A stretch of DNA of 64,000 bases from a virus (lineage: Duplodnaviria > Caudoviricetes): positions 1,646 to 65,645 of the IMG/VR virus record IMGVR_UViG_3300021256_002823; one strand, written 5' to 3'. Of this stretch, positions 12,505-24,743 are shown piece after piece. The notes under the pieces were generated by a model. That model worked only from the letters and a program-made list of their open reading frames with translations. It was not told the DNA's origin and made no database searches. The position numbers and the translations under genes were made by a program. Within the stretch, counting starts at the first letter, position 1. Every line of letters begins with the position of its first letter.

Positions 12505-12873
12505 TTACAATTCCTCCATCGTTACACTGATCTTATACAGCCCTCCCGTCCGCAGCTGCTCCCTGGACTTTCTTACATGTTTTTCGCTCTCGATGGAGAG
12601 CTGGCACTCGTGATCCGTCATCTCACTTTTTGAAGGAAAGAAGACGGATACCGTAACCGTATCCGCCCTCTCCCAGGCCCGGAACTGATCCATCCAGCGG
12701 CCAGTCACCGTCCAGTTTCCCGTCACCGTGAGCTTTGACTCCCGGCGTACAAACACCTGCGTGGTTCCTGCCTCTGTCTCATATTCCGTCGTCATCTTCT
12801 CGTTTTTGAAATTCAGGTCGTCGTCCGGCCGTGGCACAGTCGTGCCGTTGATTTTTAATTCTCCAAACATCAT
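12505..12873 (-). CDS. Distal tail (Dit-like) small protein
   Basis: Directly follows the tape measure gene. Confidence 0.6.
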   Translation of the reverse strand: MMFGELKINGTTVPRPDDDLNFKNEKMTTEYETEAGTTQVFVRRESKLTVTGNWTVTGRWMDQFRAWERADTVTVSVFFPSKSEMTDHECQLSIESEKHVRKSREQLRTGGLYKISVTMEEL

Positions 12874-15623
12874 CTGCCTCCTGACCTGTAGTTCGCCCGC
12901 TGGGATGCGGTAACAACAATCTCGTCAATGCGGTCCTGCCCGATATATACCGGGATCATGATGTCACCGCCCGCGCCCGCCAGGGCACCGGCAAAGGCAG
13001 CCGCAATCGCTCCCGTCTGGGAAGCCACCGCCTGCTCAATCATCGCCTGCAAAGAAGAGACACCGACCACCGCTTCCGGCCCCGCTTCGCCTCCTGCCAG
13101 AAGATTATTTCCCCTGGCGCCAAAAATCGTCGGCGAGTTCAGGATCATACCGCCCTTCATGGCCTTTTTGTACCATTCCACAGAAAAGTGCGGAATGGAC
13201 GGAGGATTCAATGAAAAACTGCCGGTGATCGAGAAGTGCGGCAGCTTGATCTTAGGCAGCTCCCAATGGAAGTTGAATACATTCTTCAGCTTGCCCACAA
13301 CGCCCTGCACAAAGCTCCAGATGCCGTTAAACACACTTGTGAACGTAGTCTTGATTCCGTTCAGGATACCGCTGATAGTACTTTTTATAGCATTGAAGGC
13401 AGTCGTGATTCCCGACTTCATAGCGTTTACCACAGTCATCACGGAGGTCTTGATGCCATTCCAGATCGTAGTGAGCGTGCTCTTTATGGCATTGAATACC
13501 GTGGTGGTCGTAGTCTTCAATGCATTCCAGGCTGTGGTGACAGCGGTCTTGATTGCATTGACTACCGTCGTGACCGCAGTTTTAATTGCGTTCCAGGCCG
13601 TAGTGATGACGGTCTTGATCGCATTGGTCACCGTGGTAACCGCCGTTTGGATGGCCGTCCATACCGTAGTGACCACCGTCTGAATCGCGGTAAGGACGGT
13701 CTGGAAAAATGTCTGGATTCCGGTCCACACCGTTGTAATCACCGTCTTAATGGCAGTGAACACCGTCTCGATCGTGGTCTTGATCGCGTTCCAGGCGTTT
13801 TCCAAGAAAGTGCCGATGGCACCCACGACCGTTGTAAACACCTGAGAGATTGCCTCCCAGATCATCGTGAAGAACTCCTTAATCGCATTCCAGGCTGTAA
13901 TCGCAGCCTGCTTCACATTTTCCCAGAGGTTAATCCAGAACTCACGAAACGCCTCGCAGTTATTCCACAAATAAATGAAAGCTGCCACCAGGGCAGCGAT
14001 TGCGGCGATAATCAAGACAATCGGGTTTGCCAGCATGACCGCATGCAGCCCGGCAAGAGCTCCCTTCACGACTCCTATCGCGGAGGAAATCTTCGGAATG
14101 ACCGTCATGATCGTGCCAACCGCGGATATCACTTTTCCAACCACTACGAGCACCGGACCGATGGCCGCAGCCAAAAGAGCGATCTTCACGATGGTCTGCT
14201 GCACCGGAGCAGGGATCTTGCTCCACATCTCAGCAAACGCCTTCAGGGCATTGGATATATCCTTCAGCACCGGCGCCAGGACAGTCGCCAGGGAATTGCC
14301 GATCTCCGCGCCGGTCTCCTTCAGGGAGTTCATTGTCATCTGGAACTGATCGATCGGGTCCAGGGTCTCCTCAAATGTACTGTCTACACTTCCGGCAAAA
14401 TCACCCAGGGCTCCGGAAAGGTCCTCCAAGTTCAGCTTTCCCGTCTGGACCGCATTGTAGATAGCCGCACCGGCCTTACTTCCGAAAAGGTCATAAGCCG
14501 CCTGCAGCTTTTCCGTCTCGGTTCCGTTGCCCTTCATGGTTTCGGAGAACTGCTTCAGTGCCTGATCTAAGGTTTGGCCATCCTTCGTCGCGTTCTTCAT
14601 GGCCGTTTTTAGACCCATCATCGCGGAGGAAGTATCCAGGCCGGACATCTCAACCATGCCCATGAAGCCGGCAGCCTGTTTAGAATTGAGTCCCATCTCT
14701 TTGAGCTGGATGGCGTTGTTCTGCAGGGAGCCGGCCAGCGTGTCCATGTCGATTCCGGTCGCCTGGCCGGTCGCGTTCAAAGCATCCAGCAGATCACCGG
14801 CTGTCTCGGCATCCTCTCCGAATGCATTCAGGACAGCGGATACGTTATCTACGGAGGTGGAAACGTCAGTATCATTCAGTGAAGCGAACTTGATGAACTT
14901 GGCCGACAGGTCATCCAGCGCCTGGCCGGTGAGTCCGAAACGGGTATTCACTTCTCCGACAGCGGCACCGGCTGTTTCAAAATCGGTCGGGATCTCTGTT
15001 GCCAGGTCCTTCACGATCTTGTTCATGCCTTCCAGTGCTTCACCCGTGGCACCTGTCTTTTGCGCCACGATGTCCAGTCCGGCATCCACCTCTTTGAAAG
15101 CCGCCAGGGAAGCTGCGCCGACCGCTACGATCGGAGCCGTCACGCCCTTGGTCAGGCTCTCGCCAACACCGGAGATCTTGCCACCGACTTCTTGCATCCG
15201 TGTGCCGGCCGCTTTCAGCGTGGCAGAGATATGGGAATCCGTCTCCCTGCACTGCTGCTCCAGGTTTTTCAGTTCCTGCTCGGTCGCAATGATCTCGCGC
15301 TGCCATGCGTCATACTGCTGCTGGGTTATGGTGCCGTTCTTAAGTCCGGCATCCATCTGCTCCTGCACCGATTTGAGCTTATTGAGCTTTTCCTTCGTCT
15401 CGTCCACAGCCTGGCCCAGGAGCTTGTACTTCTGTTCGATCAGCGTGGAATTCGTCGGGTCCAGCTTCAGGAGCTTGTTGACATCCTTTAGCTGCGCCTG
15501 TGTGGATTTGATTTCTTTATTGACACTCTGGAGGCTTTTCGACAGGCCTGTTGTATCGCCGTTTATTTCAATTGTTATGCCTTGGATCGAAACCCGATTT
15601 CCATATCCCATGGTTTTGTTCAT
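12870..15623 (-). CDS. Tail tape measure protein, with N-terminus rebuilt from the inserted element
   Basis: IQGITIEINGDTTGL N-terminus, Ala-rich helices, periodic AWNAIK-type repeats; first 11 codons lie in the insertion end. Confidence 0.93.
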   Translation of the reverse strand: MNKTMGYGNRVSIQGITIEINGDTTGLSKSLQSVNKEIKSTQAQLKDVNKLLKLDPTNSTLIEQKYKLLGQAVDETKEKLNKLKSVQEQMDAGLKNGTITQQQYDAWQREIIATEQELKNLEQQCRETDSHISATLKAAGTRMQEVGGKISGVGESLTKGVTAPIVAVGAASLAAFKEVDAGLDIVAQKTGATGEALEGMNKIVKDLATEIPTDFETAGAAVGEVNTRFGLTGQALDDLSAKFIKFASLNDTDVSTSVDNVSAVLNAFGEDAETAGDLLDALNATGQATGIDMDTLAGSLQNNAIQLKEMGLNSKQAAGFMGMVEMSGLDTSSAMMGLKTAMKNATKDGQTLDQALKQFSETMKGNGTETEKLQAAYDLFGSKAGAAIYNAVQTGKLNLEDLSGALGDFAGSVDSTFEETLDPIDQFQMTMNSLKETGAEIGNSLATVLAPVLKDISNALKAFAEMWSKIPAPVQQTIVKIALLAAAIGPVLVVVGKVISAVGTIMTVIPKISSAIGVVKGALAGLHAVMLANPIVLIIAAIAALVAAFIYLWNNCEAFREFWINLWENVKQAAITAWNAIKEFFTMIWEAISQVFTTVVGAIGTFLENAWNAIKTTIETVFTAIKTVITTVWTGIQTFFQTVLTAIQTVVTTVWTAIQTAVTTVTNAIKTVITTAWNAIKTAVTTVVNAIKTAVTTAWNALKTTTTTVFNAIKSTLTTIWNGIKTSVMTVVNAMKSGITTAFNAIKSTISGILNGIKTTFTSVFNGIWSFVQGVVGKLKNVFNFHWELPKIKLPHFSITGSFSLNPPSIPHFSVEWYKKAMKGGMILNSPTIFGARGNNLLAGGEAGPEAVVGVSSLQAMIEQAVASQTGAIAAAFAGALAGAGGDIMIPVYIGQDRIDEIVVTASQRANYRSGGR

Positions 15624-15679
15624 TTTCTCGCTCTTTTGAACAGAAAAACAGGAATTATCAAGATCCCTATTCTGTTCAA
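15614..15679. repeat. Three copies of a 10-bp end motif at the left end of the insertion
   Basis: TTTTGTTCAT 15614-23, TTGAACAGAA 15636-45, TTCTGTTCAA 15670-79. Confidence 0.8.
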
Positions 15680-15785
15680 AATCTGCCCTCGCGGTACTTC
15701 CTCCTTCCTGTAAATGTCATCAAAAAAGGACCACCGCCGGCAGTAGCGATCGTCCTTACAATAATCGTTTTTATCCGTCCTATGA

Positions 15786-17708
15786 TCAGGAAATAAACAT
15801 TGTCCTCATCTTTACGTGGCCTGTACACTGCGGACATATATACCCATTCTGTCTTTCAGACGGGGCTGCGCGATAACTATGTCCTGCCTTACATTTCCAC
15901 CATACTTTCCTATTACTCATAGGAAGAAGGTCTCCCGGCTGAAGCTGTCCATTCTTTTCATAATCCCAATCAGCTGCTATCTCCGGGCTGACCGTGGCCA
16001 GGTCGTTTTCTCCGCTTACCGGCAGACGGCCGCTACAATAAGGGCAGCCATTTGAATGCCGTGATCCTATTGTTGCCTGCCAGCTGTGTCCCCCGGTACA
16101 TTTCCACCAGGCTTTACGAGCCGCATGCGGCATGACCATGTTCGGTGTCAATGGATAGTTTTTTTCATAATCCCATTCCGAAGCCAACTCCGGATTCAGT
16201 GTCAGCAAATCGTTTTCTCCCGGCAGTACTTTTTGACCAGCGCAATAAGGGCAGCCGCGCCCCTGGTTTGTCCTGTTGGCAATGGATGAACGCCAGCTGT
16301 GACCCTGCCCGCATATCCAAAAGGCTCTTTTATTGGTTTTCTCCGTGACCATTTCCGGGGTGAGTGAACCATTTTTCTCGTAATCCCAAGTTGAAACGAT
16401 GTCAGGACGGAGTGTAGCCAGATCATTATACCCCGGAAGTGCTTTTTTGTTCGCACAGTACGGGCATCCGTTTCCGCGGATCCGATGATTAGGTGATGTT
16501 CTCCAACCGTGTCCCTTTTCACAAACCCACCAGACCACAACATTGGAGCCAGGCGACAGGCTTGTCGGATCATGGACAAGGTTCCTGTCAGAATCCCATT
16601 CCGAGGCAAGATCCGGCCGCAGCGTCAGGATATCATTATAGCCTGTCATGACCCTGTGTCCGTTACAGTAAGGACAGCCCTGCCCTTTACTCCGGTCATG
16701 CGGTGTTGCCTGCCAACTATGACCCTCCCGGCATTTCCACCAAACATCTTTGCCGTAACTTACGGTTACACCATCTGGCTGAAGATCCCCGTTTCTTTCA
16801 TAATCCCAGTCAGCAACCAGCTCTGGATAGCATGACGCAAGATCATTGTACCCGGGCCATATGCGTTTATTGATGCAGTAAGGGCAGCCCTGGCCAATCG
16901 TCCTGTTACTTACCGGTGCCTTCCAGCTATGACCTTCCCGGCATTTCCACCAGACCATCCTCCCAGATCCCATGGTGACCTGTTCCGGCCTGATATCCCG
17001 GTTTTTCTCATAGTCCCACCCGTCTAACAGATCAGGCCTCTCGGATGCCAGGTCATTCTCTCCAATGACAATCTTCCGGTTCGTGCAAACCGGGCAGCCT
17101 GTACCCCTGACGCGGTTTGCTATGCCTGTAATCCAGCTGTGACCCTTTGCACATTTCCACCATACTCTTCTCGCGGAACCTGCCGTGACCCCGTCCGGTG
17201 TGATATCCGTATTCTTATCATAGTCCCACTCCCCGGCAAGGTCCGGCCTTACGGTCGCCAGATCATTATCCCCACGCCATGCCAGTTTCCCGGCACAGTA
17301 GGGGCATCCGCATCCAGCTGTCCGGCTTGCTATTACAGCTTCCCATCTGTGCCCTTTGTGACATTTCCACCAGGCCTTCCTGGCGGATGAAGCTGTCACC
17401 TCCTCCGGGAAAATATCCGTATTCCTTTCAAAATCCCATTCTTCCATAAGAGCGGGAAACCTGGATGCCAGGTCATTGAATCCCCGGAGGACTTTCCGGC
17501 CTGTGCAGTACGGGCAGCCTTTTCCCACAGCGCGGTTATGCGGGCTTGCCTGCCAGCTGTGGCCTTTCACACAGAGCCACCAGAAGTCTTTGTGCGACCG
17601 GAAGGAAATATCCCCGGGGGATATACCCTGGTTCTTCTCATAATCCCATTCTGCCATGAGCTGCGGCAGATCACCCAGGTGAACAGGCCTGCCCTGTTCC
17701 GGCATCAT
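15786..17708 (-). CDS. Protein of nine tandem zinc-ribbon (DUF4379-like) repeats
   Basis: Nine ~70-aa units with the EWDYEKN...WWKCxxGHSW...GCPYC pattern. Confidence 0.88.
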   Translation of the reverse strand: MMPEQGRPVHLGDLPQLMAEWDYEKNQGISPGDISFRSHKDFWWLCVKGHSWQASPHNRAVGKGCPYCTGRKVLRGFNDLASRFPALMEEWDFERNTDIFPEEVTASSARKAWWKCHKGHRWEAVIASRTAGCGCPYCAGKLAWRGDNDLATVRPDLAGEWDYDKNTDITPDGVTAGSARRVWWKCAKGHSWITGIANRVRGTGCPVCTNRKIVIGENDLASERPDLLDGWDYEKNRDIRPEQVTMGSGRMVWWKCREGHSWKAPVSNRTIGQGCPYCINKRIWPGYNDLASCYPELVADWDYERNGDLQPDGVTVSYGKDVWWKCREGHSWQATPHDRSKGQGCPYCNGHRVMTGYNDILTLRPDLASEWDSDRNLVHDPTSLSPGSNVVVWWVCEKGHGWRTSPNHRIRGNGCPYCANKKALPGYNDLATLRPDIVSTWDYEKNGSLTPEMVTEKTNKRAFWICGQGHSWRSSIANRTNQGRGCPYCAGQKVLPGENDLLTLNPELASEWDYEKNYPLTPNMVMPHAARKAWWKCTGGHSWQATIGSRHSNGCPYCSGRLPVSGENDLATVSPEIAADWDYEKNGQLQPGDLLPMSNRKVWWKCKAGHSYRAAPSERQNGYICPQCTGHVKMRTMFIS

Positions 17709-18439
17709 TCCAGCCCCTCCCACATCGCAGCTGCGACGTCCTCAATTGTGCGGATTTCTTTTGCATCCTGTTTCACCGTTTCAGAAACAGCAGATGGAAA
17801 CTTTCCATCAATCAGGCTTTCCTTCGCTTTTTCTATCGCTTCCGTATCCGGATTCCTGACCTGTCCTTCTTCCACAAGGATCTCATTAGCCAATGCCGGA
17901 TAGAGATAGGTTTTCAGCATCTTCCTGAGATATCTGTTTTCTACCGTCAGCCTCCTCGCTTCTTTTACAGTTTCCCTTTTCTCTTCATCTGCCCTGACCA
18001 ACTGGTCCGAAATCTCAGTTTTCTCTTTTCTCAGTGTTCCGTTTTCCATCTGGAGCCCTGTCACCAGTTTTCCTGACCGTACAGCCTCCTCATAAACCCG
18101 TTCCCACCCTTTGTCGATCTCTAACAAAATGGCAGCCAGTTCCTCCGGATTTCTTCTGACGCTCAATATACGGTTAATGTCCAGGCTTTTGTATGCCAGT
18201 CCGGGTTTTCTGGACGGCAGCTGCTCTTTTTCTGCCAGTTCTTTCAGTTCTTCCATACGCTCCCTGGCTCTTGTATCCCTCCGGAAATCATACGCCTTGG
18301 CGGGATGCCCGATCTTTGCAGCGTATTGTTCCAGAAGGGAACATTTAAGCCTGCCAGGATCTCCTGCGGCTTCCGTAGTATAATAAGAATCAATGATCCG
18401 GACCAGTTCATCACTGCCAGTCTTTTTTGGCCTTGCCAT
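17705..18439 (-). CDS. TnpC-like accessory protein with coiled coil
   Basis: 244 aa following three recombinases; heptad-like C-terminal half. Confidence 0.5.
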   Translation of the reverse strand: MARPKKTGSDELVRIIDSYYTTEAAGDPGRLKCSLLEQYAAKIGHPAKAYDFRRDTRARERMEELKELAEKEQLPSRKPGLAYKSLDINRILSVRRNPEELAAILLEIDKGWERVYEEAVRSGKLVTGLQMENGTLRKEKTEISDQLVRADEEKRETVKEARRLTVENRYLRKMLKTYLYPALANEILVEEGQVRNPDTEAIEKAKESLIDGKFPSAVSETVKQDAKEIRTIEDVAAAMWEGLE

Positions 18440-18440
18440 A

Positions 18441-20039
18441 TCAATCCCCCTTTTCTAAACCCGACAGGATGCATTCCCGGTAATGCACACAGCTGCTCTG
18501 GAGCCGTAGCATTGCGCCAAGGATATCTTCCCTGCATCCGATTCCCTTTCTTACTGATTCCATCATCTGCATCAGGAACCAGCTGTCAGCGTCCACTTTC
18601 CTTTTTCCCTTTTCCTTATCATAAAAGCTGGCAGAAACGCCCTGCATGTCAGGCCTGAAATACCGGCAGCTTAAACAGTCACCAAGTTCACCGCCGTCAC
18701 CAACGGCCCTGATACAGTCGCTTACGTCTCCCTGCCTGATAAGCGGTGAAGCACACCATCCCCTTTCCATACGCACCATGTCCTGGACCGGCTCCAGTGA
18801 ATACGCCCGTTCCCCTTTCACTTGCGCCTCATCTGTTTTTTCTTTCCTCCTGTACAGCTCATAAGTAGCGCATTCCACCAGGTTTGACATGTTTGCGTAG
18901 TAATGCGAGCTGATGTTTATGTCCTCATGCCCGGCCAGTTCCATACACATGGAGGGCGAGCCGCCGGATATGATCAGGTTCATCATAGCTATGTGGCGCG
19001 TATCCCCCAGGTTGATCTTTCCGATTCCCTTCCCTGCCAGCTCTTCCATGTAAAAAAGCTTAAGCGTATTGCTCAGGTCACGGTAGCAGTATGGTGATTC
19101 CGGCGCAGCACAGTCCCTCAGGTTTCCTTTATGAAGGAACATTGCCTGCCTGCGAAACAGGGAGTCTATGATGGGTCTGGGCATCCCGGCGGTCTTTTCC
19201 TGATACCATTTCACCGCCGAGGCGACCTTCCCCGACACAGGATAGCTATCCGTTTCATAATCCCCGCTGATCTTATACGTGACTCCACGGAAACCGCCTT
19301 TCAGCCTTGTCCTCCTCACCTTAACTGCAGGAGTTCCTCCGTTATCGTTTATGCAGTCTGCCGGAACCATCAGGAATTCTGTGACCCGCAGCGGCAGCAC
19401 CGCAGTCAGGGTCCACCAGAAAAACACCGGAAAATAAAACAGACGCCTGTCATCATCCGCTGTTTCCCAGAAGCTATTGACCTCCTCATCAAACCGGAAA
19501 TACGACTTAAAGTCGATCAGCTGCCTTCTTCTTGTTTTCCGGACGTTCTGCGCGGCATACATATCCTCCAGGAATTCAATGACATAATCCCTGCCCGTAT
19601 TAGCCCCGGGAAGCATTTCGAGGAACTGTGCCACATGGCCGCACTCCTGTCCGGCAGTTTCTGCCTCCCCGGCATCAGCGCCGGCGATCCGGCAGATCGC
19701 AGCTGAAAGCCTGTGGATGGAATACATTTCTAAGATACCGATCTGGAAAGCCACGTATGCCTTCGCGCATTTCCTGAACAGCCCTGACGTGCACCCTGTC
19801 CATCCCTGTGCTTTTTTCCGGTAGTCGACGTCTGAATAATCAAACCGGATCCTTGTCCGGCTTTTTTCGTTATTCATCTCCCAGATATCATCGTCAAAGG
19901 AACTGTTTGTCAATACCCCGCGGCAGGCATAGAAGGAGAATACTTCCCCGGCACGCAAAAAGCTCTTTTCGTCAAGAGTTTCCACTATCAGGTACCGGCT
20001 GTAGTTCTGCTCCTCCTGGCTGTTCACTGCAGCAATCAT
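18441..20039 (-). CDS. Tyrosine recombinase 3
   Basis: LPLRVTEF (R), GDTRH, LAGH, SSHYY (Y); Cys-rich C-terminus. Confidence 0.85.
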   Translation of the reverse strand: MIAAVNSQEEQNYSRYLIVETLDEKSFLRAGEVFSFYACRGVLTNSSFDDDIWEMNNEKSRTRIRFDYSDVDYRKKAQGWTGCTSGLFRKCAKAYVAFQIGILEMYSIHRLSAAICRIAGADAGEAETAGQECGHVAQFLEMLPGANTGRDYVIEFLEDMYAAQNVRKTRRRQLIDFKSYFRFDEEVNSFWETADDDRRLFYFPVFFWWTLTAVLPLRVTEFLMVPADCINDNGGTPAVKVRRTRLKGGFRGVTYKISGDYETDSYPVSGKVASAVKWYQEKTAGMPRPIIDSLFRRQAMFLHKGNLRDCAAPESPYCYRDLSNTLKLFYMEELAGKGIGKINLGDTRHIAMMNLIISGGSPSMCMELAGHEDINISSHYYANMSNLVECATYELYRRKEKTDEAQVKGERAYSLEPVQDMVRMERGWCASPLIRQGDVSDCIRAVGDGGELGDCLSCRYFRPDMQGVSASFYDKEKGKRKVDADSWFLMQMMESVRKGIGCREDILGAMLRLQSSCVHYRECILSGLEKGD

Positions 20040-21894
20040 AACCCCGCAGTCCTCCTTCCATGATTCCTTTCAGGATTTCTGTCTCTTCCGCACTGGACCG
20101 GTTCTTCATCGTGCAAAGATACTCCACCACCATCGGCTTAATGGCCTGTGCGGCAATCCTCCGGTAACGCCATCCATCTTTATCTTCAAAGTGCTGTTTC
20201 AGCCGCATATGCTCGCTTACCATTCCATGCAGAAGGGCTTTCGTATAGATCTCATATCTGCATCCGATGCAACTCCCCCGGGTCTGGTCTGCGCATGGAT
20301 ATCCACAGGCTGTCATCAGGCAAAGGGCATCATGCTCCCTTGCGGCAGCTTCCCCGGCTGCTATTCTCTGAAGGACATCCGCAAGCGTTTCCTTATGGCT
20401 TATTACACTTCCTATCGTTTCCCTGGCGCGGAGAAGGGCAGCCTGGTTTACCCGGACAAGTTCCTCGATAGCATAAGGTTTCATGCCGATTGCCCTGATC
20501 AGTTCCGTCTGTTCGTGAACCCCTGTCATCCGGTAATTCTTTCCCCCGTACATTGAAAGCAGAAGATGTGGGATAAATCCGAATACACCTCTTTCAAACA
20601 TCTCCCGGGCTATGAACTGTGGGGAATATCCAGTAAATGCCGCATCCTTCAGATAGGTTTCCGTTGCAGCCGGAAATGAAGCTATGCCCCCTTTGTGGCT
20701 CCTTGCCAGGGCCGCCAGCATGTAACCCTTCGGTTTCCCGTCCCCCCTGGCATCGGCAGCCATCTCCAGTCCCTGCAGGTATGATTTATTGGCCCTGTTT
20801 GTGGAAAACCGTTTCCCTCCCAGCGCCTCCGCAAAGTCCTTCCCAAAAAAGTTCCGTATCCTTACAAGACCGGTATCAGACTGAAGGAATCCCTGGCCGG
20901 CCTGTATGTCCTCCCGGAAACTGGCGGCAACTGCAAGGATCAGGCCGACCGGCTCCTCAAGGCTTACAGGGATCGGCACTTTCAATTCCGGCACATGCCG
21001 GGATCGTTTCGTCTTGTTTGGAAAAAGCGGCTTCAGCTTCAGCCGGATCTTCAGTTCACGCGCGACATCACCGGTTTCCATTGGCTCCCCTGAAAGCAGC
21101 CGCCTCCTGAATTCTTCCCCTGGGCAGGGGAGCCCCGGCTTTGGCAGCCTCTCTATGTCTGTCCCACGCAATGCGCATACGAAATGCAGAGATATATAGG
21201 CCCACAGGTTTGCATAAGCGGGAGAACTGCAGGCTTTCTCCAGCATGGACTGCTTTGTCCAGTTCTCCTCGTTGAAAGCGCAGTACTGCATGCGGGCAAA
21301 ATCCCGGAACGGGTATGCACAGATCCCTTCTTTTTTTGAGCGGTATGCAAACCGGTAGATCCATCCGTCACCTTTCCTTACCTTTTTCTCGTAAAAATCC
21401 GCGAAAAGCTCACATGCTGACAGGGAGGCCTCCCGGTCCATCACAGAAACGAATGCTTCGACCTGCGCCGGCGGCATGCCCAGGATCTCGCGTTCAAGAT
21501 GGCTGAGGAGGTAATCAAGCAGCCTCCAACAGGCTGTCTCATCTTCCAGGCCGTTTTCTTTTACAAAACTGACAAAGGTTCTGGTAGTCACCGGGTAAGT
21601 TTTCCTCCCGTATTCAGCCAGGACCATCAGTTTTTCGCGGTCGCTTTTTTTGTACGCTTTCAGCCACATATCGAGATGACCCAGTTGCGCAAAGACATCT
21701 GCTTCCTCAGCCAGCAGACTATCCTGAGCGGGCGTCTTATCTGCCATAAACGGTGCAATGCTTTCTGAACAGCCAAACCAGCCGTTCATCTCCAGGAAGT
21801 CTGTAAGCCGTTGCTTGTCGTGCTTGTTTCCTCTGTAGAGGGAACCTTCCGCCAGGGCTTTCTCCTTTACCGCCTCAAATAGATCAACCTTCAT
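19972..21894 (-). CDS. Divergent tyrosine recombinase-like protein 2
   Basis: CALRGTDI (R), KTKR, LARSH, TETYL; HxxR box degenerate; Cys-rich C-terminus. Confidence 0.65.
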   Translation of the reverse strand: MKVDLFEAVKEKALAEGSLYRGNKHDKQRLTDFLEMNGWFGCSESIAPFMADKTPAQDSLLAEEADVFAQLGHLDMWLKAYKKSDREKLMVLAEYGRKTYPVTTRTFVSFVKENGLEDETACWRLLDYLLSHLEREILGMPPAQVEAFVSVMDREASLSACELFADFYEKKVRKGDGWIYRFAYRSKKEGICAYPFRDFARMQYCAFNEENWTKQSMLEKACSSPAYANLWAYISLHFVCALRGTDIERLPKPGLPCPGEEFRRRLLSGEPMETGDVARELKIRLKLKPLFPNKTKRSRHVPELKVPIPVSLEEPVGLILAVAASFREDIQAGQGFLQSDTGLVRIRNFFGKDFAEALGGKRFSTNRANKSYLQGLEMAADARGDGKPKGYMLAALARSHKGGIASFPAATETYLKDAAFTGYSPQFIAREMFERGVFGFIPHLLLSMYGGKNYRMTGVHEQTELIRAIGMKPYAIEELVRVNQAALLRARETIGSVISHKETLADVLQRIAAGEAAAREHDALCLMTACGYPCADQTRGSCIGCRYEIYTKALLHGMVSEHMRLKQHFEDKDGWRYRRIAAQAIKPMVVEYLCTMKNRSSAEETEILKGIMEGGLRGYDCCSEQPGGAELQPVPDSGNS

Positions 21895-23194
21895 GGGGTT
21901 CCTCCACGGCATGCTTCAGGAACCATGCCAGCATTTCATTTGCTTCTTCCAGTTCCCGGATCAGGTCCCCCTTGTTCATCAGGTAGTCAAACGCGCTCTG
22001 CGGCGACAGGTCGCCACGCCAGAACTGCAGCTGGGCAATGTCCTCACCACGCAGTACCAGCTGCACAGAAAACCAATGTCGCAGCGCATGCGGCCCCAGT
22101 GTATGCTCGCAGAGCATCTGCCCATAGATCCGGAGTTCCTGGTCATCCTGCCTGAGCAAGGCAGGCCGGAAATGATTGTCAACCAGGTCGCGGAACCGGT
22201 TGGAATAGTCTTCGTAAGTCATCGCCATTCCCCGGGCGTTCACAAACATGGGGCAGTAATCCTTTTCGAAATCCCTCCCGGCCAAGTACTCCTTATGCAT
22301 CTCATACAATCTCTGGAATACCGGCAGGAAGGCCGGATATACTCCCTGTGCCCGTTCCTTTTTGATCTTCCCACAGATGACCCCATCGCTTCTCATGGCG
22401 TACTCATGCCTCAGGTCAATCTCTGCCCTGACGATCCTCCCATCTGCCCGGATGAAAAGAAGGCCCGGCCCTTTCGGGCTCCCCTCCTGCCTGACGCTGC
22501 ATACCTCACCGGGACGGAGGCCGGCAAAGGCCTGCAGGGCGATGGCAAAGGCGATATCCGGGGCAAACCGGACTGCATGGTTCAGGAGAATCTGGAATGC
22601 TTTTGTCGGAATGTCACGGAAGATATCCTTCTGCTCCGGCACCCCGGTGATCTGGAAATCCGGAACGGAGATAGTCTTAATCCCGCGTGGCGTCCGTATC
22701 TCTTTTGGGATGTACAGCTCATTCCGCTTCAGAGCCACATATCCGCCGTACTTGTAGATCAGCTTACTGAAAAACAGTGCGACCGCGTGGACACATCTTT
22801 CTATGCTGTCAGGCCCCCGGTATTTCCCGTTCACCTTCTTCTCATGCGCATAGTCCATGAAGAATGCTGTCAGCATGTCCTTTGTCACTTTGAAAACATG
22901 ATCCACCCCATAAATGTCATAGTGGTCAATGAGCACATAGTTCAGCATCATGCAGATGTAATACAGCCTCTGCTTTACGTCAGATGCCTGCTGCCGGTAT
23001 ATCTTCCCATTATGGGCACCGGTGAAACGGTGGAGCTTTGTGAACCGCACAATAACTCCATACCTGTTCTTCAGGACAATAAAGGATCTGGTATAAGCCA
23101 GACCATCCGTGGTTACCAGCCGGTGTTCGTATACTGCGTACCGGTACCCGCGTCTTACACTGTCAGCGGCTCCGATTGGGATTACCTCGCCCAT
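21884..23194 (-). CDS. Tyrosine recombinase 1
   Basis: FAGLRPGEV (R), KIKK, HALRHWF, SAFDY (Y). Confidence 0.9.
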   Translation of the reverse strand: MGEVIPIGAADSVRRGYRYAVYEHRLVTTDGLAYTRSFIVLKNRYGVIVRFTKLHRFTGAHNGKIYRQQASDVKQRLYYICMMLNYVLIDHYDIYGVDHVFKVTKDMLTAFFMDYAHEKKVNGKYRGPDSIERCVHAVALFFSKLIYKYGGYVALKRNELYIPKEIRTPRGIKTISVPDFQITGVPEQKDIFRDIPTKAFQILLNHAVRFAPDIAFAIALQAFAGLRPGEVCSVRQEGSPKGPGLLFIRADGRIVRAEIDLRHEYAMRSDGVICGKIKKERAQGVYPAFLPVFQRLYEMHKEYLAGRDFEKDYCPMFVNARGMAMTYEDYSNRFRDLVDNHFRPALLRQDDQELRIYGQMLCEHTLGPHALRHWFSVQLVLRGEDIAQLQFWRGDLSPQSAFDYLMNKGDLIRELEEANEMLAWFLKHAVEEPHEG

Positions 23195-23356
23195 CTTTCA
23201 TCACTCCCTTCATGGAGAGCGATTATACTGGAAAAATCCGCAAATGTAAGGGCTGGTATTTACAGCCTGATTAAACTAACGTGGGGCATTATCGCTTCGG
23301 TTACGAACCACCAGCCCGGCTCGCCGGTTCTCCTCACCCCCGGTGGTGCATCCCTG

Positions 23357-23540
23357 ATGAACAAAACTCCCCTCTGATTTTCCTGATCTGATCTCCCCGA
23401 AATGAACAAAATCCATTTGTTCATCTTTTCATTCTGTTCATTTCACAGATCTTATGAACAAAACCCGGAAGCCGCATAGACAAAGGAAAAACCGGGGTAA
23501 GACACCCGGTCCTGGTTTTGTTCAGAAATTTTTGGTTCAT
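23357..23540. repeat. Seven copies of the ATGAACAAAA-type end motif at the right end of the insertion
   Basis: Copies at 23357, 23402, 23415, 23432, 23454, 23516 and 23531 in both orientations. Confidence 0.85.
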
Positions 23541-23544
23541 TTAC

Positions 23545-23556
23545 TCTATCGGCCAT
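23545..23556 (-). pseudogene. Original 5' end (MADR) of the tape measure gene
   Basis: GGAAGGAGGAGTCTTTC-ATG GCC GAT AGA at the canonical position after the tail chaperone genes. Confidence 0.8.
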
Positions 23557-23577
23557 GAAAGACTCCTCCTTCCGTCA

Positions 23578-23742
23578 TTAGAATCGATCCATTTGTTCCT
23601 GGGTCGCGACTTCTGCGTAATCGTAGTCGTCGTTACTCATTTCGCTGTACATATCATTGACCGTGCCGATGGTAAGCAGATCGAGCTCCGAGATTGAAAG
23701 CCCGATCTGTACACATCGTAGTAAAAAAAGCGGTGTAGTCAT
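23578..23742 (-). CDS. Small tail chaperone (gpT-like), 54 aa, absent from the ORF track
   Basis: MTTPLFLLRCVQIGLSISELDLLTIGTVNDMY...; in the -1 frame of the upstream chaperone. Confidence 0.8.
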   Translation of the reverse strand: MTTPLFLLRCVQIGLSISELDLLTIGTVNDMYSEMSNDDYDYAEVATQEQMDRF

Positions 23743-24119
23743 TTGCCGCTCAGTGTTTTGATGTTTTTTTTAGATTGAACCTGCTGTTCCACGTTCATAC
23801 CCCACAACGTAATGATCTGCGGGAGAATTTCATAAATTGAGAAGGTGTTAAATTCCTCAAGCCATTCATCTGGCGTATCCGGAACATTCTCAGGATCTGC
23901 GTGCCTTGCCATGAGCCAGGCGATGTTCTCAAAAAGCTCCAAACTAAAAGTATCCAGATTGGAGCTTTCCGGATCATTCTCATCAATACCCTTCTGCAGT
24001 TCATTCAGATCTTTGTAGATGTCTCGCCTGAACTTGTTTCTGTATAGACGTGGTATAGCGGCAGAGGCGCGAAATACCACGTCATTTCCATCGATTGATA
24101 TTGTTTTTGTTACTGCCAT
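23739..24119 (-). CDS. Tail assembly chaperone (gpG-like)
   Basis: Follows the major tail protein; A AAA AAC slippery site near the end. Confidence 0.8.
   Translation of the reverse strand: MAVTKTISIDGNDVVFRASAAIPRLYRNKFRRDIYKDLNELQKGIDENDPESSNLDTFSLELFENIAWLMARHADPENVPDTPDEWLEEFNTFSIYEILPQIITLWGMNVEQQVQSKKNIKTLSGK
23763..23769 (-). other. Predicted -1 ribosomal frameshift heptamer A AAA AAC
   Basis: The -1 frame reads HQNTERQ straight into MTTPLFLL. Confidence 0.7.
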
Positions 24120-24131
24120 AATTTTGCCTCC

Positions 24132-24743
24132 TTACTCAGTAGGCGTCTCAGACTCGGTTTCATGCGTTTCCGTACCGGTACTTGCGGTGGGCTGATATAC
24201 AGCGTCATACCAGGCGTTATAAACAGCATCACTGGTGTTGGTTCCGGTCTTCACTTTTACCAGTCCAGAAGGCAGCGGAGAAGCTGTAATGGACAGAGTC
24301 TCCGTCTGTACTTCAGTAGACTCCTCTTTTGTGCTACCGGAAACCGAAGGACGGGTCGCGCTGCAGTAATACATGCAGTGACGAATCTTTCTCTGATCTC
24401 CTGAGAATTCAAAAAGCAATGCAAAGTGCTCAGGTTCCACATCCTTGTTCTCGGCAATGACGCCATTGGCGTCCTCAGTCTCACGCAGCACATCCGTGAG
24501 AAAGCTCTCTGGAATGAGCGCAAGCTCAAAGTCTCCAGAATATCCATTGTTGTTGGAGACCATGTAGTACACAGAGTCATCCGCATAAAAAGGTTCATTT
24601 TCGCCTTCCGCTTCAAGCGAAAGCGATACGGCACCAGGCATCGCAACCGGTGTGCCGAAGGTGACCGTTCCGTCATCGGCCAGATTAACCAGCGCGTAGT
24701 GGCAGTTTTTCAAGCCGAACTTGACCTTATTCTTCTTAGGCAT
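24132..24743 (-). CDS. Major tail protein (phi13-like)
   Basis: KVKFGLKNCHYA, PGAVSLSL, FYADD motifs. Confidence 0.9.
   Translation of the reverse strand: MPKKNKVKFGLKNCHYALVNLADDGTVTFGTPVAMPGAVSLSLEAEGENEPFYADDSVYYMVSNNNGYSGDFELALIPESFLTDVLRETEDANGVIAENKDVEPEHFALLFEFSGDQRKIRHCMYYCSATRPSVSGSTKEESTEVQTETLSITASPLPSGLVKVKTGTNTSDAVYNAWYDAVYQPTASTGTETHETESETPTE

Follow-up and report, generated by a model that had tools for sequence, protein, structure and literature searches.

What divides a phage tape measure gene into two distant pieces, and can the gene still be translated afterwards? This question is raised by IMG/VR virus record IMGVR_UViG_3300021256_002823 (Duplodnaviria; Caudoviricetes), a metagenome-derived viral contig of 65.6 kb. 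We analysed most of the record, a stretch of 64,000 nucleotides (positions 1,646 to 65,645) that is called the window here, with positions counted from its first letter. An earlier note on this DNA had placed the native ribosome-binding site (RBS) and the start ATG GCC GAT AGA of the tape measure gene at 23545-23573 and the resumption of the gene near 15587, and had proposed that a mobile element lies between them and supplies a replacement in-frame N-terminus. Both positions were confirmed on the minus strand: the native RBS and the first four codons (Met-Ala-Asp-Arg) occupy 23573-23545, and the other 905 codons pick up near 15587. A mobile element split the gene here, and neither chance nor an assembly artefact produced the arrangement.

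The empty site and the exchange of six bases

The empty site was sought by searching with the first 60 residues of the tape measure protein. This search returned a 909-residue protein bearing the native N-terminus, encoded by L161 and L162 (L numbers designate individual contigs or loci). Both represent the same phage with an empty site, at 98.9% identity on both flanks, which bore out the proposal that a mobile element splits the gene. Ungapped alignments paired L161 1-836 with window 24375-23540 and L161 836-13549 with window 15583-2870. Because L161 aligns gaplessly up to 23540 and again from 15583, the inserted DNA corresponds to window 15583/4-23539, and no target duplication accompanies it. 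The insertion point lies within codons 5-6, which in the native gene encode Val-Lys. The claim that removal of the insert would give MADRIQG was wrong by one six-base footprint on each side, as the bases encoding Ile-Gln (15588-15583) are foreign.

Among 80 collected loci with related tape measure proteins, we inspected 31 start regions. The gene was unbroken at the insertion point in every one of these 31, and the start region was strongly conserved. The 65.6-kb record contained a single copy of the insert, and a search of GenBank phages for near-identical copies of the region gave no match. As the record is a metagenome-derived contig, a mis-join could in principle have placed an unrelated element in phage DNA. 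However, the same type of junction was present in four further independent contigs (L093, L140, L143 and L154); both junctions recurred in other samples with the same footprint rule, and the flanks matched the empty-site phage to the base. An assembly chimera is thus a practically negligible explanation.

In all four complete junction pairs (window, L143, L093 and L154), the layout was left flank, six target bases, element, six unrelated bases and right flank. This six-for-six swap conserves total length and therefore keeps the target reading frame. The foreign six bases always resembled the same site of some other tape measure gene, and those in the window fit genes starting Met-Ala-Gly-Arg-Ile-Gln, such as the target in L154. 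Since the footprints match the same site in other tape measure genes, the elements hop from tail gene to tail gene, and the six bases may be readable as a record of previous vehicles. The same footprint rule has been established experimentally for strand-biased integrative elements (SEs) and reported for Tn554 (PMC9345347, PMC10214605).

An almost identical copy of the element (99.0% over 8.08 kb) was found in a different phage, L143, at the same codons, with the similarity ending at the same left bases. All five element genes were intact in both copies. In five other element pairs, similarity was likewise confined to the element, and the flanks were far less conserved. A second lineage, ~46% identical in protein B and not resolved as a sister of the first, occupied the same codons in three further tape measure genes (L093, L140 and L154). 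At this one tape measure site, two lineages have thus inserted in no fewer than five different phages, in agreement with the suggestion that the element targets phage tail genes, and the comparison across genomes showed a recurrent site.

We consider it highly probable that the element is an autonomous site-specific tyrosine-recombinase transposon moving in the following way. It entered codons 5-6 without duplication, left six phage bases on the left and deposited six bases from its previous home on the right. The arms, rich in a motif of ~10 nt, would be acted on by three proteins with a recombinase fold (A, B and C), together with the small helical D and the multi-zinc-ribbon protein E. The features of the locus are collected in Table 1.

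Table 1. Features of the interrupted tape measure gene and of the inserted element (window positions)
Feature	Position	Strand	Evidence
Native Shine-Dalgarno region of the tape measure gene, cut off from the gene body	23563..23573	minus	Same region before the intact gene in L161 and related phages
Native tape measure start codon and next bases, left flank of the insertion	23546..23556	minus	Related phages, L161
attL: six bases of target origin that remained on the left; native codons 5-6 are read from these together with the following base	23540..23545	minus	L161 alignment; same rule in L143, L093 and L154
The element itself (7,951 bp); its genes all run in the direction of the phage tail operon	15589..23539	minus	Missing from L161/L162; 99.0% identical copy in L143
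Left arm: imperfect terminal core, six end-motif copies, hairpin with T run, promoter-like site	23195..23539	minus	Sequence inspection and folding
Gene A, 436 aa, candidate tyrosine recombinase with conserved Arg, His-x-x-Arg-His and Tyr positions	21884..23194	minus	Weak Pfam, NCBIfam and PDB Xer matches; alignment
Gene B, 646 aa, predicted tyrosine-recombinase fold, C-terminal four-Cys cluster	19972..21912	minus	AlphaFold model
Gene C, 532 aa, candidate third tyrosine recombinase, C-terminal four-Cys cluster	18441..20039	minus	Weak Phage_integrase match; conserved catalytic-type columns
Gene D, 244 aa, small helical N-domain and long coiled coil; occupies the TnpC/Srap/GinD position	17705..18439	minus	Conserved in all family members
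Gene E, 645 aa, nine DUF4379 treble-clef zinc-finger repeats	15786..17723	minus	Pfam E = 4.5e-178, 9 stretches
Intrinsic-terminator-like hairpin with T run past gene E, upstream of the tape measure body	15720..15757	minus	Folding -19.2 kcal/mol, z = -3.4
Right arm: Shine-Dalgarno-like purine box, three end-motif copies, in-frame ATGs at 15623 and 15611	15589..15719	minus	Frame and motif inspection
Six donor-derived bases at the right junction (attR footprint)	15583..15588	minus	Match the same site in tape measure genes starting Met-Ala-Gly-Arg-Ile-Gln
Tape measure gene body, intact	12870..15582	minus	Pfam PhageMin_Tail and TIGR01760

Element genes, family and comparable systems

The insert is filled by five co-directional genes, A to E. 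The Arg, His-x-x-Arg-His and Tyr columns of A and C were preserved across 18 homologues each. For B, no sequence family in Pfam or NCBIfam matched, and profile searches against the PDB were unhelpful for both B and C. Residues ~100-426 of the B model aligned to XerH, Cre, XerA, Tn1549 Int and lambda Int with Z 9.5 to 6.6, and the top 25 rows of the structure search were all tyrosine recombinases; the model thus assigns B a tyrosine-recombinase fold. Its nearest named Atlas clusters were 632-aa tyrosine recombinases of Bacillota. The B alignment contained invariant Arg, His and Tyr columns, in a region where the model is poor (predicted local distance difference test score <50, residues 387-451). 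When the profile of B was compared with those of A and C, no signal emerged. For D, neither a sequence family nor a solved structure matching its model was found. E was present in every sister element, with a varying number of repeats. As the same five-gene order was found in every contig long enough, E is a core gene of the family and not cargo. We also considered a self-splicing insertion (group I or II intron), which was ruled out by the absence of any Rfam family in a scan of 15000-24200 and of a reverse-transcriptase domain.

The five-gene module was conserved in ~50 contigs from Clostridia, and B had 420 homologues, none informatively named. A family scan with one genome per species recovered 49 loci, among which the isolate genomes were all Bacillota, mostly Lachnospiraceae and Oscillospiraceae. 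In viral contigs, a scan with a single B sequence detected nothing and an alignment-based scan detected one locus, L138; a tblastn search of B against plasmids found only distant Bacillus helix-turn-helix proteins. A right-junction pattern had no match in viral contigs. A looser pattern had 22 matches in metagenome contigs, of which three were true junctions and the others native tape measure starts.

Many family contigs were 7.3-8.2 kb long and correspond to element-sized pieces at assembly breaks. Element-sized contigs (L090, L093 and others) were binned in metagenome-assembled genomes (MAGs) labelled Prevotella, Dialister and Faecalibaculum, and identical B proteins occurred in differently labelled bins. 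These odd labels probably reflect repeat-induced assembly breaks and mis-binning, not the true host range. An element that breaks assemblies and scatters into wrongly binned MAG contigs matters for mobilome surveys. One isolate, Butyrivibrio sp. INlla16 (L128, L129), carried at least three copies from two lineages; two of these copies had extra open reading frames (ORFs) of 88 and 104 aa after E, toxin-antitoxin-like in appearance.

Several known systems resemble the element in part. The Tn554 family of staphylococci and enterococci (TnpA, TnpB, TnpC) likewise combines one ordinary and one ~630-aa tyrosine recombinase with a small third protein; its insertion is site- and orientation-specific, lacks target duplication and leaves a 6-7 bp donor footprint at the right junction (PMC10214605). 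This type of junction was found here in the comparison of empty and occupied sites and in three further complete junction pairs. Whereas the Tn554 module has three genes, the element adds a third large recombinase, C, and the multi-zinc-ribbon protein E as core components. D is twice the size of TnpC, resistance cargo is lacking, and the targets are phage or conjugative-element genes instead of a chromosomal site. With NCBIfam and Pfam family models, the search for Tn554 homology gave weak generic Xer/integrase matches for A and C and none for B or D.

In SEs, a small recombinase, a large recombinase-fold protein, a large recombinase and a small protein follow one another as do A, B, C and D. 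SEs also share imperfect terminal inverted cores and the transfer of six donor left-flank bases to the new right junction, while the six bases of the target stay on the left (PMC9345347). However, SEs have been reported only in Gammaproteobacteria (PMC10214605), in contrast to the Clostridial family described here. Their Tfp protein has no catalytic motif, whereas B keeps Arg, His and Tyr columns (where its model is poor), and E is an additional protein.

Genomic islands with ginABCD (GInts) have three recombinase-type genes and a small fourth one as well as an AT-rich 3' end, show high target specificity and often lie at the 5' end of a gene. An outward promoter keeps the adjoining target gene expressed (PMC5385486). 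GInts are the closest precedent for damage limitation, at the transcriptional level. The 5'-end location was also seen in our family; a consensus scan detected no outward promoter, and in-frame starts were present instead. GInts differ in carrying large cargo, in residing in chromosomal genes and in rescuing by transcription; here, the targets are mobile and the proposed rescue is an in-frame translational restart that replaces the N-terminus. The window copy has no cargo, the E stop codon lying 197 bp from the element end, and it showed no family match or sequence similarity to GInts.

Integrating phages and islands rebuild the end of the transfer RNA or protein gene that they enter by means of a duplicate segment in attP. 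The proposed restart would likewise be an element-supplied substitute end that keeps the target gene functional. The segment in those systems is a homologous copy within the crossover site, usually of a 3' end, whereas the substitute here is a 5' leader that lacks such homology and brings its own start; homology at the crossover does not extend beyond the six-base swap. Recombinase in trio (RIT) elements were ruled out: they encode three recombinases of ~315-410 aa between 34 bp terminal inverted repeats (PMC10214605), and the proteins here are 436, 646 and 532 aa, with dispersed motifs and cores that are short and imperfect in place of long repeats.

Neither gene content nor detectable sequence places the element in the Tn554 family, the SEs, the GInts or the RITs, and its predicted mode of action is that of the first three. 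It is distinguished by five core genes including a zinc-ribbon repeat protein, by life on other mobile elements, and by entry at translation starts, where it provides a replacement start. In the literature that we searched, neither this element family nor transposons in tape measure genes had been described. Transposons of the Tn554, SE and GInt type are few and poorly understood, and surveys of SEs and GInts have centred on Proteobacteria. To these kinds we add a Clostridial family that is abundant and has five core genes. With empty and occupied sites known to the base, almost identical copies in several vehicles and a readable trail of donor footprints, it makes the transposition rules directly testable.

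Target starts and the proposed restart of the truncated gene

With targets identified by Pfam, all family insertions were at the 5' ends of phage or conjugative-element genes, namely phage tape measure genes and the Maff2, PrgI, ArdC-like and topoisomerase genes of conjugative elements. The start region of the Maff2 gene was the insertion place of many lineages, and further insertions were found in one PrgI gene and upstream of a DUF6133 gene. The element lay 35 codons into an ArdC-like gene in L096 and two codons into a Toprim/topoisomerase gene in L138. Element and target gene were co-oriented in each of the seven distinct targets (0.008 under random orientation). Other mobile elements appear to be the sole home of the family, which sits in phage tail and conjugation genes of gut and rumen Clostridia and enters them at translation starts.

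For each lineage, we asked whether the element provides a start codon from which an open frame leads in phase into the target. Such a start was present wherever the target start had been removed (4/4 lineages) and in one of the 10 lineages landing upstream, L132/L133 (Fisher's exact p = 0.005, a contrast weakened by the small number of lineages, which are also not fully independent). In L096, a consensus Shine-Dalgarno (SD) sequence precedes an ATG by six bases, and 30 in-frame codons come after this ATG; L138 combines a consensus SD with a GTG that leads into 37 in-frame codons. In the second tape measure lineage, five bases separate an ATG from the end of the element. In this lineage (L093, L154), an SD-led leader ORF of 32 codons ends at a stop that is formed at the junction and overlaps the new ATG, an arrangement typical of translational coupling. 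This recurrence supports element-supplied restart of the target ORF as a probable trait of the family. In L096, the substitute N-terminus may be a diverged copy of the ArdC N-terminus, since the Pfam envelope of the ArdC target begins 17 residues before the junction; neither of the two short peptides alone gave a match, however, and BLASTP gave no alignment.

The window lineage has two in-frame ATGs, at 15623 and 15611. As the earlier note had stated, these element-end starts are in frame with the remainder of the gene, and the first sits inside a copy of the end motif. The target frame is open from 15716 through the right arm, for 45 codons vs 24 and 12 in the other frames. Initiation at these ATGs would yield a tape measure protein in which 12 or 8 substitute residues plus Ile-Gln replace the first six residues. 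We propose that the right arm is a portable restart device that would limit damage to the vehicle that spreads the element.

Several observations weigh against a working restart in the window. Neither ATG has a recognisable SD, in line with the earlier remark that the new starts lack a strong one, and the first is simply part of a putative recombinase-binding motif. An SD-like purine box at 15708-15697, through which the open frame runs, is not followed by a start codon, and at the position of the second lineage's leader ATG the window lineage has no start codon. A strong terminator follows E and a further hairpin lies in the left arm; transcription that starts at the phage late promoter would be hindered in passing them. 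In a consensus promoter scan, no outward promoter exceeded the threshold. The open frame is also cheap, as the right arm is purine-rich and has few stops in any frame. Elsewhere in the family, several lineages landing between SD and start leave little or no SD (e.g. L089, L099), so not every member repairs its target. The swapped six bases overlap the target SD in the Maff2 and PrgI lineages, so that the donor footprint often restores part of it.

The suggestion that ORF repair keeps the helper viable therefore stands in part: the in-frame start is recurrent in the family, but the window starts lack an SD and have a terminator upstream. The window restart looks weak, and output may be low or dependent on read-through. 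In our judgement, the chances that it functions in this phage are evenly balanced, and we lean modestly towards the combined statement of transposon identity and mechanism together with a functional restart. A broader view is tentative, and we rate it somewhat below even: that this is a hyper-parasitic transposon family living only in phages and conjugative elements, inserting co-directionally at gene starts and carrying a portable translation-restart cassette that keeps the vehicle infectious or transferable. Such a cassette would consist of an SD, a leader ORF and an in-frame or coupled start, and the decapitated gene would still be made. Should translation of the truncated gene indeed resume from the right arm, this arm would be a compact device of nature by which one mobile element travels on another and leaves it alive, as well as a new source of N-terminal variation in phage tape measure proteins.

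The principal alternative is a plain knock-out, in which the transposon targets the conserved tape measure start and the binding motif merely happens to contain ATGs. Unable to build tails, the prophage would then be defective, or the element would be a phage-disabling parasite. The missing SD before both ATGs, the purine box without a start codon, the -19 kcal/mol terminator directly upstream, the lack of an outward promoter in the scan and the location of the first ATG within a repeated motif all fit this explanation, as does the stripping of the SD from the target by some sister lineages. However, it would not account for the 4/4 vs 1/10 contrast, for the consensus SD and start in L096 and L138, or for the coupled leader ORF of L093 and L154. 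Moreover, near-identical copies reside in many vehicles and genomes, and a vehicle-killing element without transfer genes would hardly have spread so. Window and L161 differ at 4 non-synonymous and 50 synonymous codons of the tape measure body, which is intact; as these differences are undatable relative to the insertion, the count gives no verdict on viability. Altogether, we regard a plain knock-out as unlikely, though well within consideration.

The earlier note had also suggested an excision-controlled switch, with the element resident during lysogeny and excised on induction to restore the tape measure gene, much as in developmentally excised intervening elements. The six-for-six swap keeps the frame, so excision would restore a full-length gene whichever hexamer stays, and the element has its own promoter-like site and recombinases. 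This idea found no support, however. No regulator linking the element to phage induction was present, and the contigs included neither a circular or joined form nor any of element length with overlapping ends that would suggest a circle. The in-frame starts of the family would also be pointless under such a switch. In the closest kinds of element, attL x attR recombination mostly yields no empty site and movement looks replicative (PMC9345347, PMC10214605); related kinds rarely regenerate empty sites (PMC10214605). A switch of this type is very improbable here, and we retain the transposon with an element-supplied start, weak in the window, as the preferred reading.

Arms, cargo and phage neighbourhood

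The end motif of ~10 nt is repeated in both arms, and the left-arm copies occur in both orientations. The left-arm hairpin with its T run is at 23513-23488, and the promoter-like site at 23250-23222 stands ahead of gene A. The position of the terminator after E was conserved in sister elements. Counted over both arms, the end motif occurs nine times (six times on the left, three on the right), and E likewise has nine zinc-finger repeats. In the L103 group, ~eight motifs accompany ~four repeats; as the two numbers disagree there, a one-finger-per-site model is not supported.

Right arms of other lineages showed further peculiarities. In a Maff2-targeting clade (L102, L105, L108, L111, L122, L103, L104), a strong SD and a tiny ORF or DNA box follow the E terminator. 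Translation of this box gave an Ile-Arg-Ser-Pro-Thr-like core common to otherwise diverged lineages, and the box was absent from the window lineage. The right arm of L132/L133 has two SD-led starts, from which a 68- or 39-codon ORF runs in frame into the intact Maff2 start; the product would be an N-terminally extended small membrane protein. In L125 and L136, a Maff2-like start sequence lies within the arm. In L109, the region upstream of the target (T-rich terminator tail and SD) recurs almost unchanged within the right arm of the element, with left-end-like motifs after it, as if a piece of an earlier attL had become internal. It is reminiscent of the 'brought-in' internal att sites reported for a Tn554-related element (PMC12486829).

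In the L138 copy (L138 8870-13213 and 13214-13700), a 1,447-aa cargo gene lies between E and the right arm. Its contig is catalogued as viral, and with the element in a topoisomerase-type gene the host contig may be a conjugative element and not a phage.

In the window, a siphovirus-type late operon occupies the minus strand, with genes for terminase, portal, major head and major tail proteins and a chaperone pair, and it continues with the tape measure gene, distal tail proteins, endolysin and two large serine recombinases. The latter lie side by side at the lysis-proximal end of the phage (465-2033 and 2451-4034; 522 and 527 aa), and both were assigned to the phrog_95 integrase family. L161 has an identical arrangement of paired serine recombinases.

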